NCBI RefSeq assembly: GCF_009931435.1
Contig: NZ_CP043414.1
Strand: one strand, 5' to 3'
Length of the DNA stretch: 64,000 bases
Source of the DNA: Escherichia coli
Lineage (GTDB): Bacteria; Pseudomonadota; Gammaproteobacteria; Enterobacterales; Enterobacteriaceae
This document shows, piece by piece, positions 2,370-63,920 of the stretch (position 1 is the stretch's first letter; every line of letters starts with the position of its first letter). The translations under genes and the position numbers were made by a program. The notes below the pieces were generated by a model. The model made no database searches, was not told the DNA's origin, and saw only the letters and a program-made list of their open reading frames with translations.

Positions 2370-3669
2370 TTACACTGGTGTGTTCAGCAAATCGTTAACG
2401 GCATCAGATGCCGGGTTACCTGCAGCCAGCGGTGCCGGTGCCCCCTGCATCAGACGATCCAGCGCAGTGTCACTGCGCGCCTGTGCACTCTGTGGTGCAG
2501 CTGCCAGAATGCGGCGGGCCGTTTCCACGGTCATACCGGGGGTTTCGGCCAGCACGCGTGCCTGTTCTTCGCGTCCGTGAGCCTCCTCACAGTTGAGGAT
2601 CCCCATAATGCGGCTGTTTTCTGCCGCAACCGCAGCGGTGATCTGCGCGTTCACGTCCGGCTGCGCCGCGCTGGCGTTTTCGCCCTCCGTCGCTGGCACC
2701 ACGTCAGTAACGTCAGCCTGCGAAGCAGTGGCTGAAACAGTTGTTGATTGAGTCTCTTTGGTCATTCGCCCTCCTGAGAGACGGGATTTACGTGCATCCA
2801 GTGCATCACGCATAACGGTGATCGCATCGGTGCTGTTGACAAGTTCATCAGCCAGTCCGGCATCAATGGCCTCCTGACCGCTGTACACTGCAGCCTCGGT
2901 ATCCAGCACAGCCTGCACAGACAGGCCGGTATATGCCGACACCTTCTGCGCAAACATCTGGCGGGTTGCGTCCATCCGGGACTGCAGTGTCTCCCGGACG
3001 TCATCCGGAAGATGGCTGTAGGGATTGCCATCCACCTTATGGCTGCCGCTGTAAATCAGCGTGATTTCCACGCCCTGTTTCTCCAGGGCAGCACCGTAAT
3101 TACTGTGAGCCATCATGACGCCGATGGAGCCTGTCCGGGCGGTCTGCGTGACCAGACGCCGGGAGGCGGCGCTGGCAAGCAGCTGACCTGCACTGCAGTT
3201 CATGTCATTTGCCAGCGCCCATACCGGTTTTATGTCTCGCACACGGGCGATGATGTCAGCACAGTCAAATGCTCCCGCCACCATCCCGCCCGGTGTGTCC
3301 ATATCGAGCAGAATGCCGTCCACCATCGGGTCGCTGGCAGCCTGTTGCAGACGGGCGATAATGCCGTTGTAACCGGTCATCCCCGAATACGGCTGCAGCG
3401 CCCGTGTCCGGCTGACCAGCGTGCCGGAAACCGGCAGCACGGCGATGCCGTTCATGACCTGATAACTGCGGGCCTGTCGTGGTCCGTCATCATCACCGGA
3501 TAACGCCAGCGCCGCGGGTGCCTCTCCGGCAGTCAGGCTGTCGCCGGATACTGCATCCGTCAGGCGGCTGATCCCAAGCTGGCCTGCAAGCGCACAAAAG
3601 AAAACCCGCGCATAGGCGGATTCAAGCATCAGCGGCTCATTAAAAGCCATGCTGGCAATATGCGGGAGA

Positions 3670-9855: not shown

Positions 9856-10401
9856 TTAAACCACCACGCGCTCTTTCATCCAGCCATAGACAAACGACTC
9901 ATTGGCCTCGCGTTTCTCTGCCAGCTCCAGATAACGCTCGCCCTGCGTACAGTTCAGGGCTTTCACCAGTACCAGTTCACCATCCCTGCTGCGATTTTTC
10001 AGATATGCCCGTAATGCATTAAGAGTACGCGGCCCGATGCGTCCATCAGCATCCATATCCGGATAGAGTTTCCCGCGCAGGTTGAAAACGTTCAGCCAGC
10101 GCTGAAGCATTCTGGACGCCACAGTTGGCCCCATGTTCACGCCCGTATCGCACAACTCTGCGGCAATATCCGGAGACAGGTCCTCAACCTGGTCGAATCG
10201 TGGTCCGTACCAGTAGTCCGCCTCGAGTATTTCCAGCGCCTGCCCACGCGTCAGGTCACGCATATCGCCCTGATAACCGTGTGCACGGGCAACTTTTTCA
10301 GTGATGCCCCATTTAGTCGGACCACCTTTATCATCCGGGTGATTGACGTAACCGCCCTCTTTTCCCAGAATTTCGTCAAAAATTTCATCTTTCGACTTCA
10401 T
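9856..10401 (-). CDS. Endolysin, glycoside hydrolase family 108-type with C-terminal peptidoglycan-binding region
   Basis: Motif EGGYVNHPDDKGGPTKWGIT, typical of the GH108 lysozyme N-terminus; position after the holin-like genes. Confidence 0.75.
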   Translation of the reverse strand: MKSKDEIFDEILGKEGGYVNHPDDKGGPTKWGITEKVARAHGYQGDMRDLTRGQALEILEADYWYGPRFDQVEDLSPDIAAELCDTGVNMGPTVASRMLQRWLNVFNLRGKLYPDMDADGRIGPRTLNALRAYLKNRSRDGELVLVKALNCTQGERYLELAEKREANESFVYGWMKERVVV

Positions 10402-18637: not shown

Positions 18638-18793
18638 TTACTCCTCAGGTTCGTAAGCTGTGAAGACAGCGACCTCCGTCTGGCCGGTTCGGATTCGTAC
18701 CTCGCAGAGGTCTTTCCTCGTTACCAGTGCCGTCACAATGACGGTTAAACAGATGACGATCAGGGCGATTAACATCGCCTTTTGCTGCTTCAT
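18638..18793 (-). CDS. hok: Hok/Gef-family type I toxin (HokD/RelF-like, 51 aa)
   Basis: MKQQKAMLIALIVICLTVIVTALVTRKDLCEVRIRTGQTEVAVFTAYEPEE matches recalled HokD/RelF; the ORF track extends the frame upstream. The sok antisense RNA is expected around 18.8-18.95 kb but is not mapped. Confidence 0.85.
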   Translation of the reverse strand: MKQQKAMLIALIVICLTVIVTALVTRKDLCEVRIRTGQTEVAVFTAYEPEE

Positions 18794-19640
18794 AGCCTGC
18801 TTCTCCTTGCCTTTCGGCACGTAAGAGGCTAACCTAGATTTGCCGTTCATAGATTGAGCCTCAGATTAATGTTAAGCGTCTTGCAGGACGCGTAATGTTA
18901 ACTGGGGCTTTTCTATATCTGCCTTTGGTGTTCATGCCTGAGACAGATAGCCTCAAGCACCCGCAGCCATTGTACTTAACTCCCGTTACCTCGCCAATAT
19001 AAAATCAATCAGAAAGGCGATCCATAAGGACAATAGCAAGACAATAAATTGCCATTACCCGCAATAGCCAGCGCACATTTGAGGACCAGCACGACAACTT
19101 TCTGTATCGGACGTACACCAGTCCTGATAAATACAAGGCGGTCTCATCAGTGATGAAATGCAACTATTGAGTACAGTTTCTCTGATTTTTCTGTAAAACA
19201 TGGAACACAACAACTAAATATAACTAGCACTTCTTAAGATGTACAAATTCAGAGTTAAGATAACGTAAGCAGTTTTCTCAAAACTAAGTGTAAATTTTTA
19301 ATGAAGAGCAGTGCTATGCTCCTGATCATATATTCATTGTTTGGAACTGGAGGAATATTTAGGTTGCTGGAGTGGTTGATTGAATTTAAATCAACTAAGA
19401 CAAAAACCAACAATTAAAGATATGTGGTATATCAGAAAACAACTATCCGTATATTACTACAGAATTAAATACTAGCAACAAAGCTGTCTTTATTGATTTT
19501 TTATCTGATATCGAAATAAATAAACATAAAATAACCAACTAATTAAAACAGAGACTCGACAATGAGCCTCTATCTATTGTAACAGCACTTCCAAATTTAT
19601 TTTAGTAAGATAATAGCATGGGGCATACTAGCCCCATCTT

Positions 19641-25862: not shown

Positions 25863-26513
25863 ATGATGATGGAAAGCCTTGGCATTAGGCTTAAGAGACT
25901 CAGAAAAGACAAGGGACTGACCCAAGTCGAACTGGGCAAGCTTTCTGGCGTAACAGGGGTAACTATAGGGTACTGGGAGAAAGACCTAAACGAACCCGGT
26001 AGCAAAGCTCTTAGTAAATTAGCCCAAGCACTAGGAACTACTGAGTCCTATCTCCTATATGGAGTATCGTCTACTGAACCTACCCTTGTGCAGAACAATT
26101 CAGGCACCCAAATCCCCTATCTTTCATGGGGGGAAGCAATTTCTTTCCTAATTTTAGAAGGAGAGAAAACTATGGGAAATGCCGACAGAATCACCACATT
26201 CTTTGACGTCAAGGAGGGGGATTTTGCCGTTTCAATGCCTGATGACACTATGCACAACCCATCAGGGTCGCCAAGCATTCCGGTTGGTGCCACAGTGATC
26301 ATGAGGCCTAGAGAAAAATATAAAAATGGTAGTATCGTCGCTGTAATAGTCCCAGATCCGCTTACAAACGAACCATCTATGACTATAAAAAAATTAGTCA
26401 TCGACGGAAAACTCGTGTATTTAAGCCCCCTCAATCCTCGCTATCAATCGTCCTTACTGACACCTGAATGTAAAATTGTTGCTGTAGCAAAAGGTGTGCA
26501 GTTCAGCCTATAG
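25863..26513 (+). CDS. cI: CI-like repressor (N-terminal HTH plus C-terminal S24 LexA-like autopeptidase domain)
   Basis: 216 aa; LTQVELGKLSGVTGVTIGYWEK (HTH) and C-terminal VIMRP...GSIVAVIV...KKLVIDGKLVYLSPLNP; divergent from the cro-like gene. Confidence 0.85.
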   Translation: MMMESLGIRLKRLRKDKGLTQVELGKLSGVTGVTIGYWEKDLNEPGSKALSKLAQALGTTESYLLYGVSSTEPTLVQNNSGTQIPYLSWGEAISFLILEGEKTMGNADRITTFFDVKEGDFAVSMPDDTMHNPSGSPSIPVGATVIMRPREKYKNGSIVAVIVPDPLTNEPSMTIKKLVIDGKLVYLSPLNPRYQSSLLTPECKIVAVAKGVQFSL

Positions 26514-27340: not shown

Positions 27341-27906
27341 TCCATCCATGTTTACGGGATAGATAAAGATATATCGCTTCGAAACCATCGACATGGTTTG
27401 GATAGCCTTCCTCAGCAGCAAGGTTATCCCCAAAACATTCAAGAATATAATTTAAACGCGCTGTTTCATAATGAATCTTCCAGCGAGTCTGATTTAGTTT
27501 GCTGACCATTTTAATTTTATCCTCCATTGAGGTTACTGGTTGAGAATGGAGACCACACGTGACAGCGCGTGGTCGTGCGCCGGACACGGATAAGAATCCG
27601 GCACAAACAGTTTACTGAAAGGATATATCCCTGAAAAGTCAGGGCATAACGCGAAAGCGCACGGCGAAGTCATTCCTCCCTTTGTTGTGTACCACTGACA
27701 TCTTCGTCTGTGCGCTTCCGGTTGTGGCAATCCGCGAAATGGCGCGGCGGTAAGTATGGCGGGGTTATTCCTTCCCCGTTGAGGACACCGGGTTGTCAGG
27801 TTGACCATACGCTTAAGTGACAACCCCGCTGCAACAACCCATGTTGATTACCTTTTGGCGGGTATCCGTTTTTTGTTTTCCCTTGTGATACCCGCCCTTT
27901 TTAAAG

Positions 27907-28068
27907 TGAATTTTGTGATGCGGTGAATGCGGCTCAGCGCACGCGGAACAGTTAAAAAGGCCAGTTGACTTCCGTATTGGTTCTTATGGGTGGGTTCTCT
28001 GTATCCGGCGTTAATTATTAACTGGTTAACGTCACCTGGAGGCACCAGGCACCGCATCACAAAATTCA
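27907..28068. repeat. 19-bp perfect inverted repeat pair (TGAATTTTGTGATGCGGTG / CACCGCATCACAAAATTCA) flanking ~125 bp
   Basis: Arms at 27907-27925 and 28050-28068, read directly; the right arm ends ~18 bp before the next ORF start. Confidence 0.6.
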
Positions 28069-28085
28069 TTGTTGAGGATGCGATA

Positions 28086-28268
28086 ATGGAAACGTTATTA
28101 CCAAACGTCAATACGTCTGAAGGTTGTTTTGAAATTGGTGTCAGAATCAGTAACCCTGTATTTACTGAAGATGCCATTAATAAGAGAAAACACGAACGGG
28201 AGCTATTAAATCAAATATGCATTGTTTCAATGCTGGCCCGTTTACGCCTGATGCAAAAAGGACGATGA
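28086..28268 (+). CDS. Small hypothetical early protein
   Basis: METLLPNVNTSEGCFEIG...; 60 aa. Confidence 0.3.
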   Translation: METLLPNVNTSEGCFEIGVRISNPVFTEDAINKRKHERELLNQICIVSMLARLRLMQKGR

Positions 28269-28474
28269 CAATGAATACAGTATTTGCACTCGTTCTGACG
28301 GTTTTTCTTAATACAGGCGAGCCAGTCGATCTTGTTATTGGTATACATGACTCAATGAAAGAATGCATGGCTGCCGCAGCGGAACAGAAAATTCCCGGCA
28401 ACTGTTATCCGGTTGATAAAGTTATTCGCATGGACAATAACGAAATCCCGGCAGGACTTAAAACAGCGCCGTAA
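28265..28474 (+). CDS. Small hypothetical protein with hydrophobic N-terminus (possible secreted/membrane)
   Basis: MTMNTVFALVLTVFLNTGEP...; RBS-like AAGGA upstream. Confidence 0.35.
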   Translation: MTMNTVFALVLTVFLNTGEPVDLVIGIHDSMKECMAAAAEQKIPGNCYPVDKVIRMDNNEIPAGLKTAP

Positions 28475-58245: not shown

Positions 58246-59256
58246 TTAGATATGGGTAACGATTTCTTTAATCAGCGGCGGTCCTTTAAAAATAAAACCA
58301 GAATAAATTTGCACCAGTGAGGCCCCCGCAGCAATCTTTTCACGCGCAGCGATAACCGAGTCAATGCCGCCAACACCGATGATCGGTAAGCGACCGTTTA
58401 ATTCCTGAGACAAACGGCGAATAATTTCGGTGCTTTTTAACTGTAGCGGACGACCACTTAAGCCACCGGTTTGATCACAATTTTTCATTCCCTGAACCAG
58501 AGAACGATCGAGCGTGGTATTGGTTGCAATAACGCCATCAATATTATGGCGAACTAAACTATCGGCAACCTGGATCAATTCTTCTTCAGAAAGATCCGGC
58601 GCGATCTTCACGGCGATCGGCACATATTTATGGTGCATCGCTTGCAAATCATTTTGCTTATTTTTAATCGCGGTTAAGAGATCATCCAGCGCTTCGCCAT
58701 ATTGCAGTGTGCGTAATCCTGGGGTATTCGGCGATGAAATATTGATGGCGATATATCCCGCATAGGCATAGATTTTTTCCATACAAATCAGATAGTCATC
58801 TTTACCCTGCTCCACCGGCGTATCTTTATTTTTGCCGATATTAATCCCCAGAACACCATCGTAATGAGCTTTTTTTACGTTCTCAACGAGGTTATCAACG
58901 CCGAGATTATTAAAGCCCATACGGTTGATCAAACCTTCGGCATCTACCAGACGAAAGAGACGCGGCTTGTCATTACCTGGCTGTGGACGTGGCGTGACGG
59001 TACCGATCTCGATAGATCCAAACCCCATCGCGCCTAACGCGTCAATGCACTCCCCGTCTTTATCAAGACCGGCTGCCAGACCAAGCGGATTTTTAAACGT
59101 CAGGCCCATGCAGTTAACAGGTTTCGCAGGCACTTTCTGCCGCACCAGTGCTTCAAACGGTGTTCCTGTAATACGGCGTAATTGCTGAAAAGTAAACTCA
59201 TGAGCGCGCTCTGGATCGAGCTGGAAAAGGGCTTTACGAACGAAGGGGTAGTACAT
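58246..59256 (-). CDS. pyrD: Dihydroorotate dehydrogenase (quinone)
   Basis: [21 protein letters not shown]...; 336 aa. Confidence 0.95.
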
Positions 59257-59492
59257 GAACTCTCCTGGATTCCCGGTGTGCAAACCGGGGGCGTATTATG
59301 TGCGAGTTCGGACCAAAAGGGAATTGACCTACGGCAATAAATAGCAAACGTTTTCTTATTGCGCTTTTTTTATGCTTTTTTTGGCTTTGCTTCGTCAGAT
59401 AAATCATTTCGACTCGCGGACGCCCTCTGTCAGACTGACCAAATTGTTATCAATTTTAACAAAACAAGAACAATTGGTTATAAGGAGAGAGT

Positions 59493-63730: not shown

Positions 63731-63920
63731 TGCCGGATGTGGCGCACAAAAACAGCGGTTTCAACGGATTGTAGGCCTGATAAGACGCGTCAAGCGTCGC
63801 ATCAGGCATTTGGGCACGGCTGCCGGATGCGGCGTGAACGCCTTATCCAGCCTACAAAACCAGCATTTTCAACGGACTTGTAGGCCTGATAAGACGCGTC
63901 AAGCGTCGCATCCGGCATTT
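63731..63920. repeat. REP/BIME cluster (two copies of GCCTGATAAGACGCGTCAAGCGTCGCATC(A/C)GGC plus companion palindromes)
   Basis: Near-identical ~33-bp palindromic units at ~63774-63806 and ~63883-63915, typical of E. coli REP elements. Confidence 0.75.

Follow-up and report, generated by a model that had tools for sequence, protein, structure and literature searches.

By sequence comparison, the inverted repeat analysed here is located in the early-left, dicBF-type operon of a lambdoid prophage, where it is flanked on its 5' side by the terminator of the small RNA (sRNA) in the dicF slot and on its 3' side by the dicB ribosome-binding site. We use "the window" for the whole 64-kb stretch of Escherichia coli DNA in which the repeat was found. 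E. coli O121 RM8352 matches the 501 bases around the repeat with 100% identity, and its plus strand carries at this locus a repressor and two small ORFs, then dicB, a ydfD-like gene (DUF1482), an exonuclease and an integrase. The gene order is of the Qin type, with small ORFs, an sRNA and its terminator, dicB and ydfD placed 3' of the immunity region, and alignment to the K-12 Qin prophage spans ydfC-dicF-dicB, the repeat falling in the spacer between the dicF terminator and dicB. This spacer carries no annotation in the RefSeq records examined. An earlier interpretation made from the letters alone (the sequence-only reading) had placed the repeat in an early-left region, and the plus-strand order of CI-like repressor, dicB, exonuclease and integrase bears this out. 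The features of the locus are listed below.

27645 to 27726, plus strand: long imperfect hairpin (predicted fold), likely the RNase III site for the 5' end of the 190-nt DicF-type species
27838 to 27902, plus strand: sRNA cassette in the dicF slot; in the alignment to K-12 the flanks are conserved and the sRNA between them is replaced
27857 to 27866 with 27887 to 27896, plus strand: dicF-slot terminator hairpin, GGCGGGTATC paired with GATACCCGCC, with a U-rich 20-nt loop and then TTTTT at 27898 to 27902
28074 to 28078, plus strand: dicB Shine-Dalgarno sequence GAGGA, 4 nt beyond the base of helix P1 (see below)
28086 to 28268, plus strand: dicB, encoding a 60-aa cell-division inhibitor (Pfam PF05358, 127.5 bits; RefSeq annotation of the identical locus)
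28271 to 28474, plus strand: ydfD-like gene (DUF1482), from annotation of the identical locus and a profile match

Within the element bounded by the repeat no promoter-like site was found, the sole match in the scanned region lying on the minus strand in the dicB start region just 3' of it. No terminator was found inside the element either, the only one being that of the dicF slot, which lies upstream, and ARAGORN returned no tRNA-like element between 26500 and 29000.

Other features of the window were recorded alongside. At 25863-26513 there is a 216-aa CI-like repressor ORF, and over the corresponding coordinates the RM8352 record annotates a 158-aa racR; the window may come from a different mosaic, or RM8352 may differ in this segment. 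Rfam identified a hok/sok-type sok RNA at 18788-18962 (minus strand, 105 bits), a PyrD leader at 59251-59324 (minus strand, 97.9 bits) and a REP-type naRNA4 element at 63774-63852, the last two presumably marking the host chromosome beside the prophage.

An apparently exchangeable sRNA precedes the repeat

DicF (RF00039) gave no Rfam match in the window even at E ≤ 10, while the K-12 sequence scores 76.7 bits, and on this comparison the sRNA allele in the dicF slot of the window is not DicF. Across 120 related loci, collected as described below, at least 8 loop alleles occupy the slot on a shared GGCGG...CCGCC terminator scaffold, as though the sRNA "seed" could be swapped while the processing stems around it were conserved. 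In K-12, a 190-nt DicF species is RNase III-dependent (PMC10448788), and counting 190 nt back from the end of the window terminator (27902) leads to approximately 27713-27715, in the 3' strand of the 27645-27726 hairpin.

Positions 27700-27838 are 100% identical to K-12 Qin while both flanking sequences diverge; several hairpins are predicted in this segment, which returned no Rfam match.

The repeat closes a stable multi-hairpin RNA

The sequence TGAATTTTGTGATGCGGTG occupies 27907-27925 and its exact reverse complement occupies 28050-28068, giving two arms of 19 nt that are 100% complementary and separated by 124 nt. Among perfect inverted repeats whose loop is at most 300 nt, it is the longest in the 64-kb window, and the longest found in 100 dinucleotide-preserving shuffles of the window was 15 nt, so that the repeat noticed in the sequence-only reading is both exact and beyond anything in the shuffles. 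The 19-mer has no further match in the window even with up to three mismatches (0.02 expected by chance). A plus-strand ORF does follow closely, as that reading had it, and this is dicB; the gap between the end of the 3' arm and the dicB ATG (28086) is 17 nt rather than the approximately 18 bp given there.

Folded as plus-strand RNA, the segment 27900-28075 has a minimum free energy (MFE) of -71.5 kcal/mol (z = -6.2), which none of 200 shuffles equalled, against -56.9 kcal/mol for the minus strand. Folding of the transcribed orientation had been put forward in the sequence-only reading as a check on an RNA structure, and its outcome speaks for one. The arms are lengthened by the pairs A27905-U28070 and G27906.U28069 to a helix of 21 uninterrupted bp, termed P1 (27905-27925 with 28050-28070; duplex energy -32.1 kcal/mol), which closes four hairpins, H2-H5, in a structure of approximately 165 nt.

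27905 to 27925, plus strand: 5' strand of P1, made up of the 19-nt arm (27907-27925) plus A27905 and G27906
27929 to 27944, plus strand: H2, a small hairpin (GCGGC...GC-A-CGC), nearly invariant in close homologues
27945 to 28006, plus strand: H3, a hairpin whose base (GGAACAG/CUGUAUCC) is conserved and whose top is hypervariable and rich in indels
28007 to 28033, plus strand: H4, a hairpin with four conserved G.U pairs, which can form in plus-strand RNA only
28035 to 28049, plus strand: H5, a hairpin (CCUGG-AGGCA-CCAGG) with an invariant AGGCA loop
28050 to 28070, plus strand: 3' strand of P1, made up of the 19-nt arm (28050-28068) plus U28069 and U28070

The inner symmetries that had been pointed out between the arms are likewise real. 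The pair CGTTAA...TTAACG corresponds to H4, and GGCACCAGGCACCG (28041-28054) consists of the 3' side of H5 together with the beginning of the 3' arm.

A further complementarity was spotted by eye: the conserved single-stranded segment CAGUUAA (27950-27956) is complementary to the H4 loop UUAACUG (28018-28024), which is invariant. A 7-bp pseudoknot between these two segments, neither of which varies, is possible.

Covariation supports the fold and the plus strand

Loci were collected from IMG/VR with a 22-mer taken from H4-H5, yielding the 120 loci mentioned above, and to these we added the K-12 copy and copies found by BLAST in phages P7, D6 and one Klebsiella phage; the alignment used for covariation comprised 80 distinct sequences. 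Across these 80 homologues, 94.8% of cells are paired, and 15 pairs change on both sides, as compared to 4.8 in column shuffles (0 of 500 as high) and 3-9 when the partners were slid. In the Klebsiella phage copy, the long outer stem differs in sequence and still pairs (G-C to A-U, U-A to C-G), with compensatory changes in H4 and H5 too. Compensatory changes in H4 are also seen in the sRNA STnc100, discussed below, and a U-A to G-C change in H5 is shared by P7, the Klebsiella phage and STnc100.

Because the four G.U pairs of H4, which on the opposite strand would be A.C mismatches, are conserved, the functional RNA is read as that of the plus strand. This assignment, which rests also on the direction of the operon and on a plus-strand Rfam match, is the one used throughout. 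P1 itself contains a constitutive G.U pair (G27906.U28069), and its polymorphisms in close relatives, at 47 G.U against 27 A.C cells with approximately equal numbers of distinct sites, favour the same strand only weakly.

Part of the H4-H5 conservation seen in the IMG/VR set is imposed by the collecting 22-mer, which lies there; the same conservation appears in the BLAST-anchored P7, D6 and Klebsiella copies and in protein-anchored copies from E. albertii. The latter came from a DicB-anchored scan of 100,044 species genomes, which returned four loci, two in E. albertii and two on MAG contigs that are probably contaminants; as an unbiased check it served well, though it brought in little further diversity. 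In both of the protein-anchored E. albertii loci the element lies directly upstream of dicB.

P1 probably coincides with a reported RNase III-dependent RNA end in K-12

In K-12, the 53-nt form of DicF ends at the terminator (PMC5069750, PMC9438474, summarising Faubladier et al. 1990), and a 72-nt form has an RNase III-dependent 3' end 19 nt past that of the 53-nt form (PMC5069750, PMC9438474); two RNase III mapping papers cite DicF in passing. On our copy of the K-12 locus (L002), 53-nt DicF occupies positions 3053-3105, which brings the 72-nt end to 3124. The K-12 5' arm occupies 3115-3133, and position 3124 is thus the tenth base of the 19-nt arm and lies in the central part of P1, a helix predicted to form in K-12 as well. 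Because the 72-nt end falls on this base, we read P1 as an RNase III site that parts the sRNA from the dicB mRNA. The corresponding cuts in the window are the following.

27916 to 27917, plus strand: predicted RNase III cut in the 5' arm, by alignment equivalent to the 3' end of K-12 72-nt DicF
28060 to 28061, plus strand: predicted staggered RNase III cut in the 3' arm, placed by the 2-nt 3'-overhang rule (PMC6212723) on the assumption of double cleavage

Within the 5' arm, the predicted cut separates UGAAUUUUGU from GAUG..., a placement obtained by arithmetic from two reviews and the annotated end of 53-nt DicF, which may be off by a few nt. Substrates of RNase III are described as duplexes of approximately 22 bp in which the two cuts are offset by 2 nt and enclose a G-C pair (PMC6212723). 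P1 offers 21 uninterrupted bp on the transcribed strand, within the range of approximately 20-22 bp, and the pairs lying between the predicted cuts are G27915-C28060 and U27916-A28059, the first of which is a G-C pair.

Taken together, this analysis suggests, with a probability that we put at roughly 0.75, that P1 is an RNase III stem separating the sRNA of the dicF slot from the dicB mRNA, as part of a structure of approximately 165 nt whose interior resembles the sRNAs STnc100 and PasD. Of the three readings offered from the letters alone, namely a long-range RNA structure in the early-left transcript (for antitermination or processing), a pair of protein-binding sites and the ends of a miniature inserted element, it is the processing structure that stands, on account of the stable fold in the transcribed orientation, the covariation and the K-12 end that maps to the middle of the 5' arm; the other readings are unsupported or rejected, as detailed below.

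We posit the following course of events. Transcripts that read through the dicF-slot terminator would fold P1, and RNase III would cut it between 27916 and 27917 and, if both strands are cut, also between 28060 and 28061. Judging from the coordinates and the aligned sequences, the K-12 72-nt end would lie in P1 and the same cut would apply to the window allele, and the second P1 strand may be cut as well. The 5'-arm cut would give the upstream sRNA an alternative 3' end, as with 72-nt DicF in K-12, and the dicB-ydfD mRNA would be detached with a short leader, of approximately 25 nt if the 3' arm is cut. Double cleavage would in addition release a core of 144 nt (27917-28060). Since the cut for the 190-nt species maps to the 27645-27726 hairpin and the other cut maps to P1, the sRNA slot appears bracketed by two RNase III-type stems. 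An exchangeable sRNA between two such stems suggests a way in which prophages may replace the sRNA "seed" and retain the machinery that processes it.

Cleavage is predicted to expose the dicB Shine-Dalgarno sequence

In the read-through precursor, stacking on P1 is possible for the terminator U-tract and the AA after it (27898-27904), which would pair with UUGAGGA (28072-28078), a segment that includes the Shine-Dalgarno sequence. For the Shine-Dalgarno sequence, the predicted mean unpaired probability rises from 0.18 in the precursor to 0.78-0.80 after the P1 cut, and in this model cleavage would free it. The pairs that would mask it are weak, rich in G.U and invariant, and the dicB AUG stays in a small local hairpin in every predicted form.

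The interior appears to be a diverged relative of STnc100

A permissive Rfam scan of 701 nt around the repeat gave a single match, to STnc100 (RF02076), on the plus strand at 27909-28063, with 33.5 bits and E = 1.6e-5 (E = 0.0015 when the whole window was searched). This score is below the STnc100 gathering score of 47 bits, as are those of P7 (43 bits), D6 (39.6 bits), the Klebsiella phage (35.6 bits) and K-12 (34.4 bits), while the canonical STnc100 located 3' of stxB2 in phage 933W reaches 207.7 bits. The alignment covers model positions 21-154 and the window match ends at 154; the intrinsic terminator that makes up model positions 155-206 is absent from the window, where the dicB Shine-Dalgarno sequence and ATG come directly. 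When the element is aligned directly with canonical STnc100, the motif GGUGAAU is common to both and the helices correspond in place though not in sequence: the position of H2 is taken by a helix of another sequence, and the inner part of P1 shows compensatory G-C to A-U and C-G to U-A changes. On these alignments, the element appears to be a sub-threshold, diverged relative of STnc100/PasD and not a member of the family. STnc100 and the EPEC sRNA PasD, both prophage sRNAs, are reported to share an ancestor, and Hfq RIL-seq picked up PasD (Zhu, Shabalina and Storz, bioRxiv 2026); that preprint makes no mention of dicF or dicB.

The gene 3' of the element is not constant. DicB is encoded there in most loci and small ORFs of unknown function in a few, whilst in Rac-like prophages (L019, L011, L026 and others) the core lies directly upstream of a KilR-type FtsZ inhibitor (NF008465, 160.6 bits; phrog_294). 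In P7 (L123 2001-2116) and D6 (L124 2001-2121) the core is found in the ban operon, after tRNA genes and upstream of tciA/TerB. In these P1-like phages the closing stem of the retained core is just 8 bp long, which implies a function of the core that is independent of a long RNase III stem.

Approximately 110 nt upstream of the core, P7 and D6 also carry an 85-nt tRNA-Sec-like sequence (L123 and L124, 1804-1888), whose scores, 46.6 and 43.1 bits, fall just short of the Rfam gathering score of 47; the D6 record annotates tRNAs on the strand opposite to that given by Rfam.

These observations bear on an alternative in which the conserved interior has the main role, either as a free sRNA of approximately 144 nt belonging to the STnc100/PasD superfamily or as a cis-acting gate on translation of dicB, kilR or tciA, with P1 only releasing or holding it. 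Such an account overlaps with that of a processing stem and does not exclude it. It draws on the sub-threshold STnc100 matches in five independent variants, on helices positioned as in the 933W sRNA with compensatory changes at the level of the family, on a core kept upstream of three unrelated genes (dicB, the kilR-type FtsZ inhibitor and TerB/tciA) and on the invariant H4 and H5 loops, the near-invariance of inner loops being unexplained by a pure "cut here" role. The excised core is itself predicted to be stable (-55 kcal/mol), related prophage sRNAs have been reported, PasD among them in Hfq RIL-seq data, and the precursor is predicted to hide the Shine-Dalgarno sequence. Against this, no RNA species from the spacer is reported in the DicF papers examined (PMC10448788, PMC5069750, PMC9438474), the match lies below the gathering score in an element without a terminator of its own, the way in which the IMG/VR loci were collected accounts for part of their H4-H5 conservation, and the masking depends on weak G.U-rich pairs that never vary. 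We consider an interior with the main role doubtful, if a possibility to be reckoned with. It is in the same tentative spirit that we suggest a second RNA encoded by dicBF-type operons, in the form of a 144-nt core that may be released by a double cut in P1, or else a cis gate that may couple processing to translation of the division inhibitor; the odds are against it, and were it true, the locus would be a modular unit of sRNA, processed RNA and division toxin common to lambdoid and P1-like phages.

Antitermination, DNA sites and a mobile element explain the repeat poorly

Antitermination had been named together with processing as a use for the RNA structure, and a put- or nut-like element that enables expression of dicB and distal genes would accord with the structured nature of the RNA, its early-left operon and the absence of a recognisable N gene from the part of the phage that was examined. 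The element, however, lies downstream and not upstream of the dicF-slot terminator, the sole one nearby, with no U-run after its 3' arm. It matches none of the Rfam antiterminator families, and the core is also present in late operons (3' of stxB) and in the P1 ban operon. We regard an antitermination role as very improbable.

Hardly any weight is left for the arms acting as DNA, whether as inverted protein-binding sites (for looping or as an operator) or as a cruciform. The symmetry is exact in DNA, and compensatory changes preserve a DNA palindrome as well as an RNA helix; yet common variants with G.U pairs or a bulged base keep the RNA helix at the expense of the symmetry in DNA, and the inner helices depend on G.U pairs, which are present only in plus-strand RNA. 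The arms taken singly are not palindromic, the element has no promoter-like site and the locus is inside a transcribed operon, far from operators. For the pair of protein-binding sites suggested in the sequence-only reading we found nothing in favour.

The remaining suggestion, that a miniature inverted-repeat transposable element (MITE) has inserted upstream of dicB with the arms as its terminal inverted repeats, predicts a multi-copy unit. In 5,426 E. coli genomes, the 166-bp unit was found at 10,299 places, as compared to 10,425 for a 501-bp query that includes dicB; it is present in 4,602 of these genomes, with a median of 2 and a maximum of 9 per genome. Because these place counts match those of the dicB-containing query and copies per genome are few, the unit is taken to occur only with dicB-type loci. 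A perfect 19-bp inverted repeat does bound a non-coding unit of approximately 160 bp, and homology ends at or near the arms in some relatives, but a MITE is ruled out (it keeps the smallest residual chance of the readings considered) by the copy number, with one copy in the window, by the bordering sequences AAAG and TTGT, which form no target-site duplication, by Klebsiella arms that differ in sequence and keep their pairing, and by P1-like phages that have the interior without the long arms, the opposite of the pattern expected of such an element.

Comparison with known systems

The preferred reading, a processing stem between the sRNA and dicB, makes the repeat an ordinary and essentially known element, the K-12 event having been reported since 1990. 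The spacer of K-12 Qin is orthologous, with the same position between terminator and dicB and the same inner hairpins, and its arms equal those of the window save for two transitions, which give G.U pairs in K-12. The window differs in its perfect stem, in a 14-nt insertion in the variable top of H3 and in its sRNA, another allele, to which the Rfam DicF model gives no match. The repeat itself consequently adds little, being the local copy of a stem that approximately 85% of complete E. coli genomes carry; the apparent kinship of the spacer with STnc100/PasD, the core in front of unrelated division-inhibitor genes and the exchangeable sRNA are modestly useful side results.

With STnc100 and PasD the element shares a closing helix after GGUGAAU, the positions of the helices, an identical H5 (of the CCGGG-AGGCA-CCCGG type) and a prophage setting. 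It differs in its closing stem, which is 21 bp in the dicBF version and 8 bp in canonical STnc100, in lacking the 3' terminator that both canonical STnc100 and PasD possess, and in its location in an early-left operon, whereas STnc100 and PasD lie 3' of stx or near Q and lysis genes.

Some type I toxins, tisB and zorO among them, have mRNAs that can be translated only once they are processed at the 5' end. The dicB arrangement is similar in that a small toxic protein is encoded behind a structured leader, with translation predicted to follow processing, and it differs in the processing enzyme and in architecture; we know of no antisense RNA partner for the dicB-leader element.

The lambda N-leader site and the R sites of T7 early mRNA are long RNase III stems in polycistronic early phage transcripts, placed just upstream of the ribosome-binding site of a gene, and their cleavage separates RNAs and can raise translation of the downstream gene. 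The element described here has no sequence kinship with them, and it differs further in that its upstream product is an sRNA and its stem encloses a conserved multi-hairpin core.
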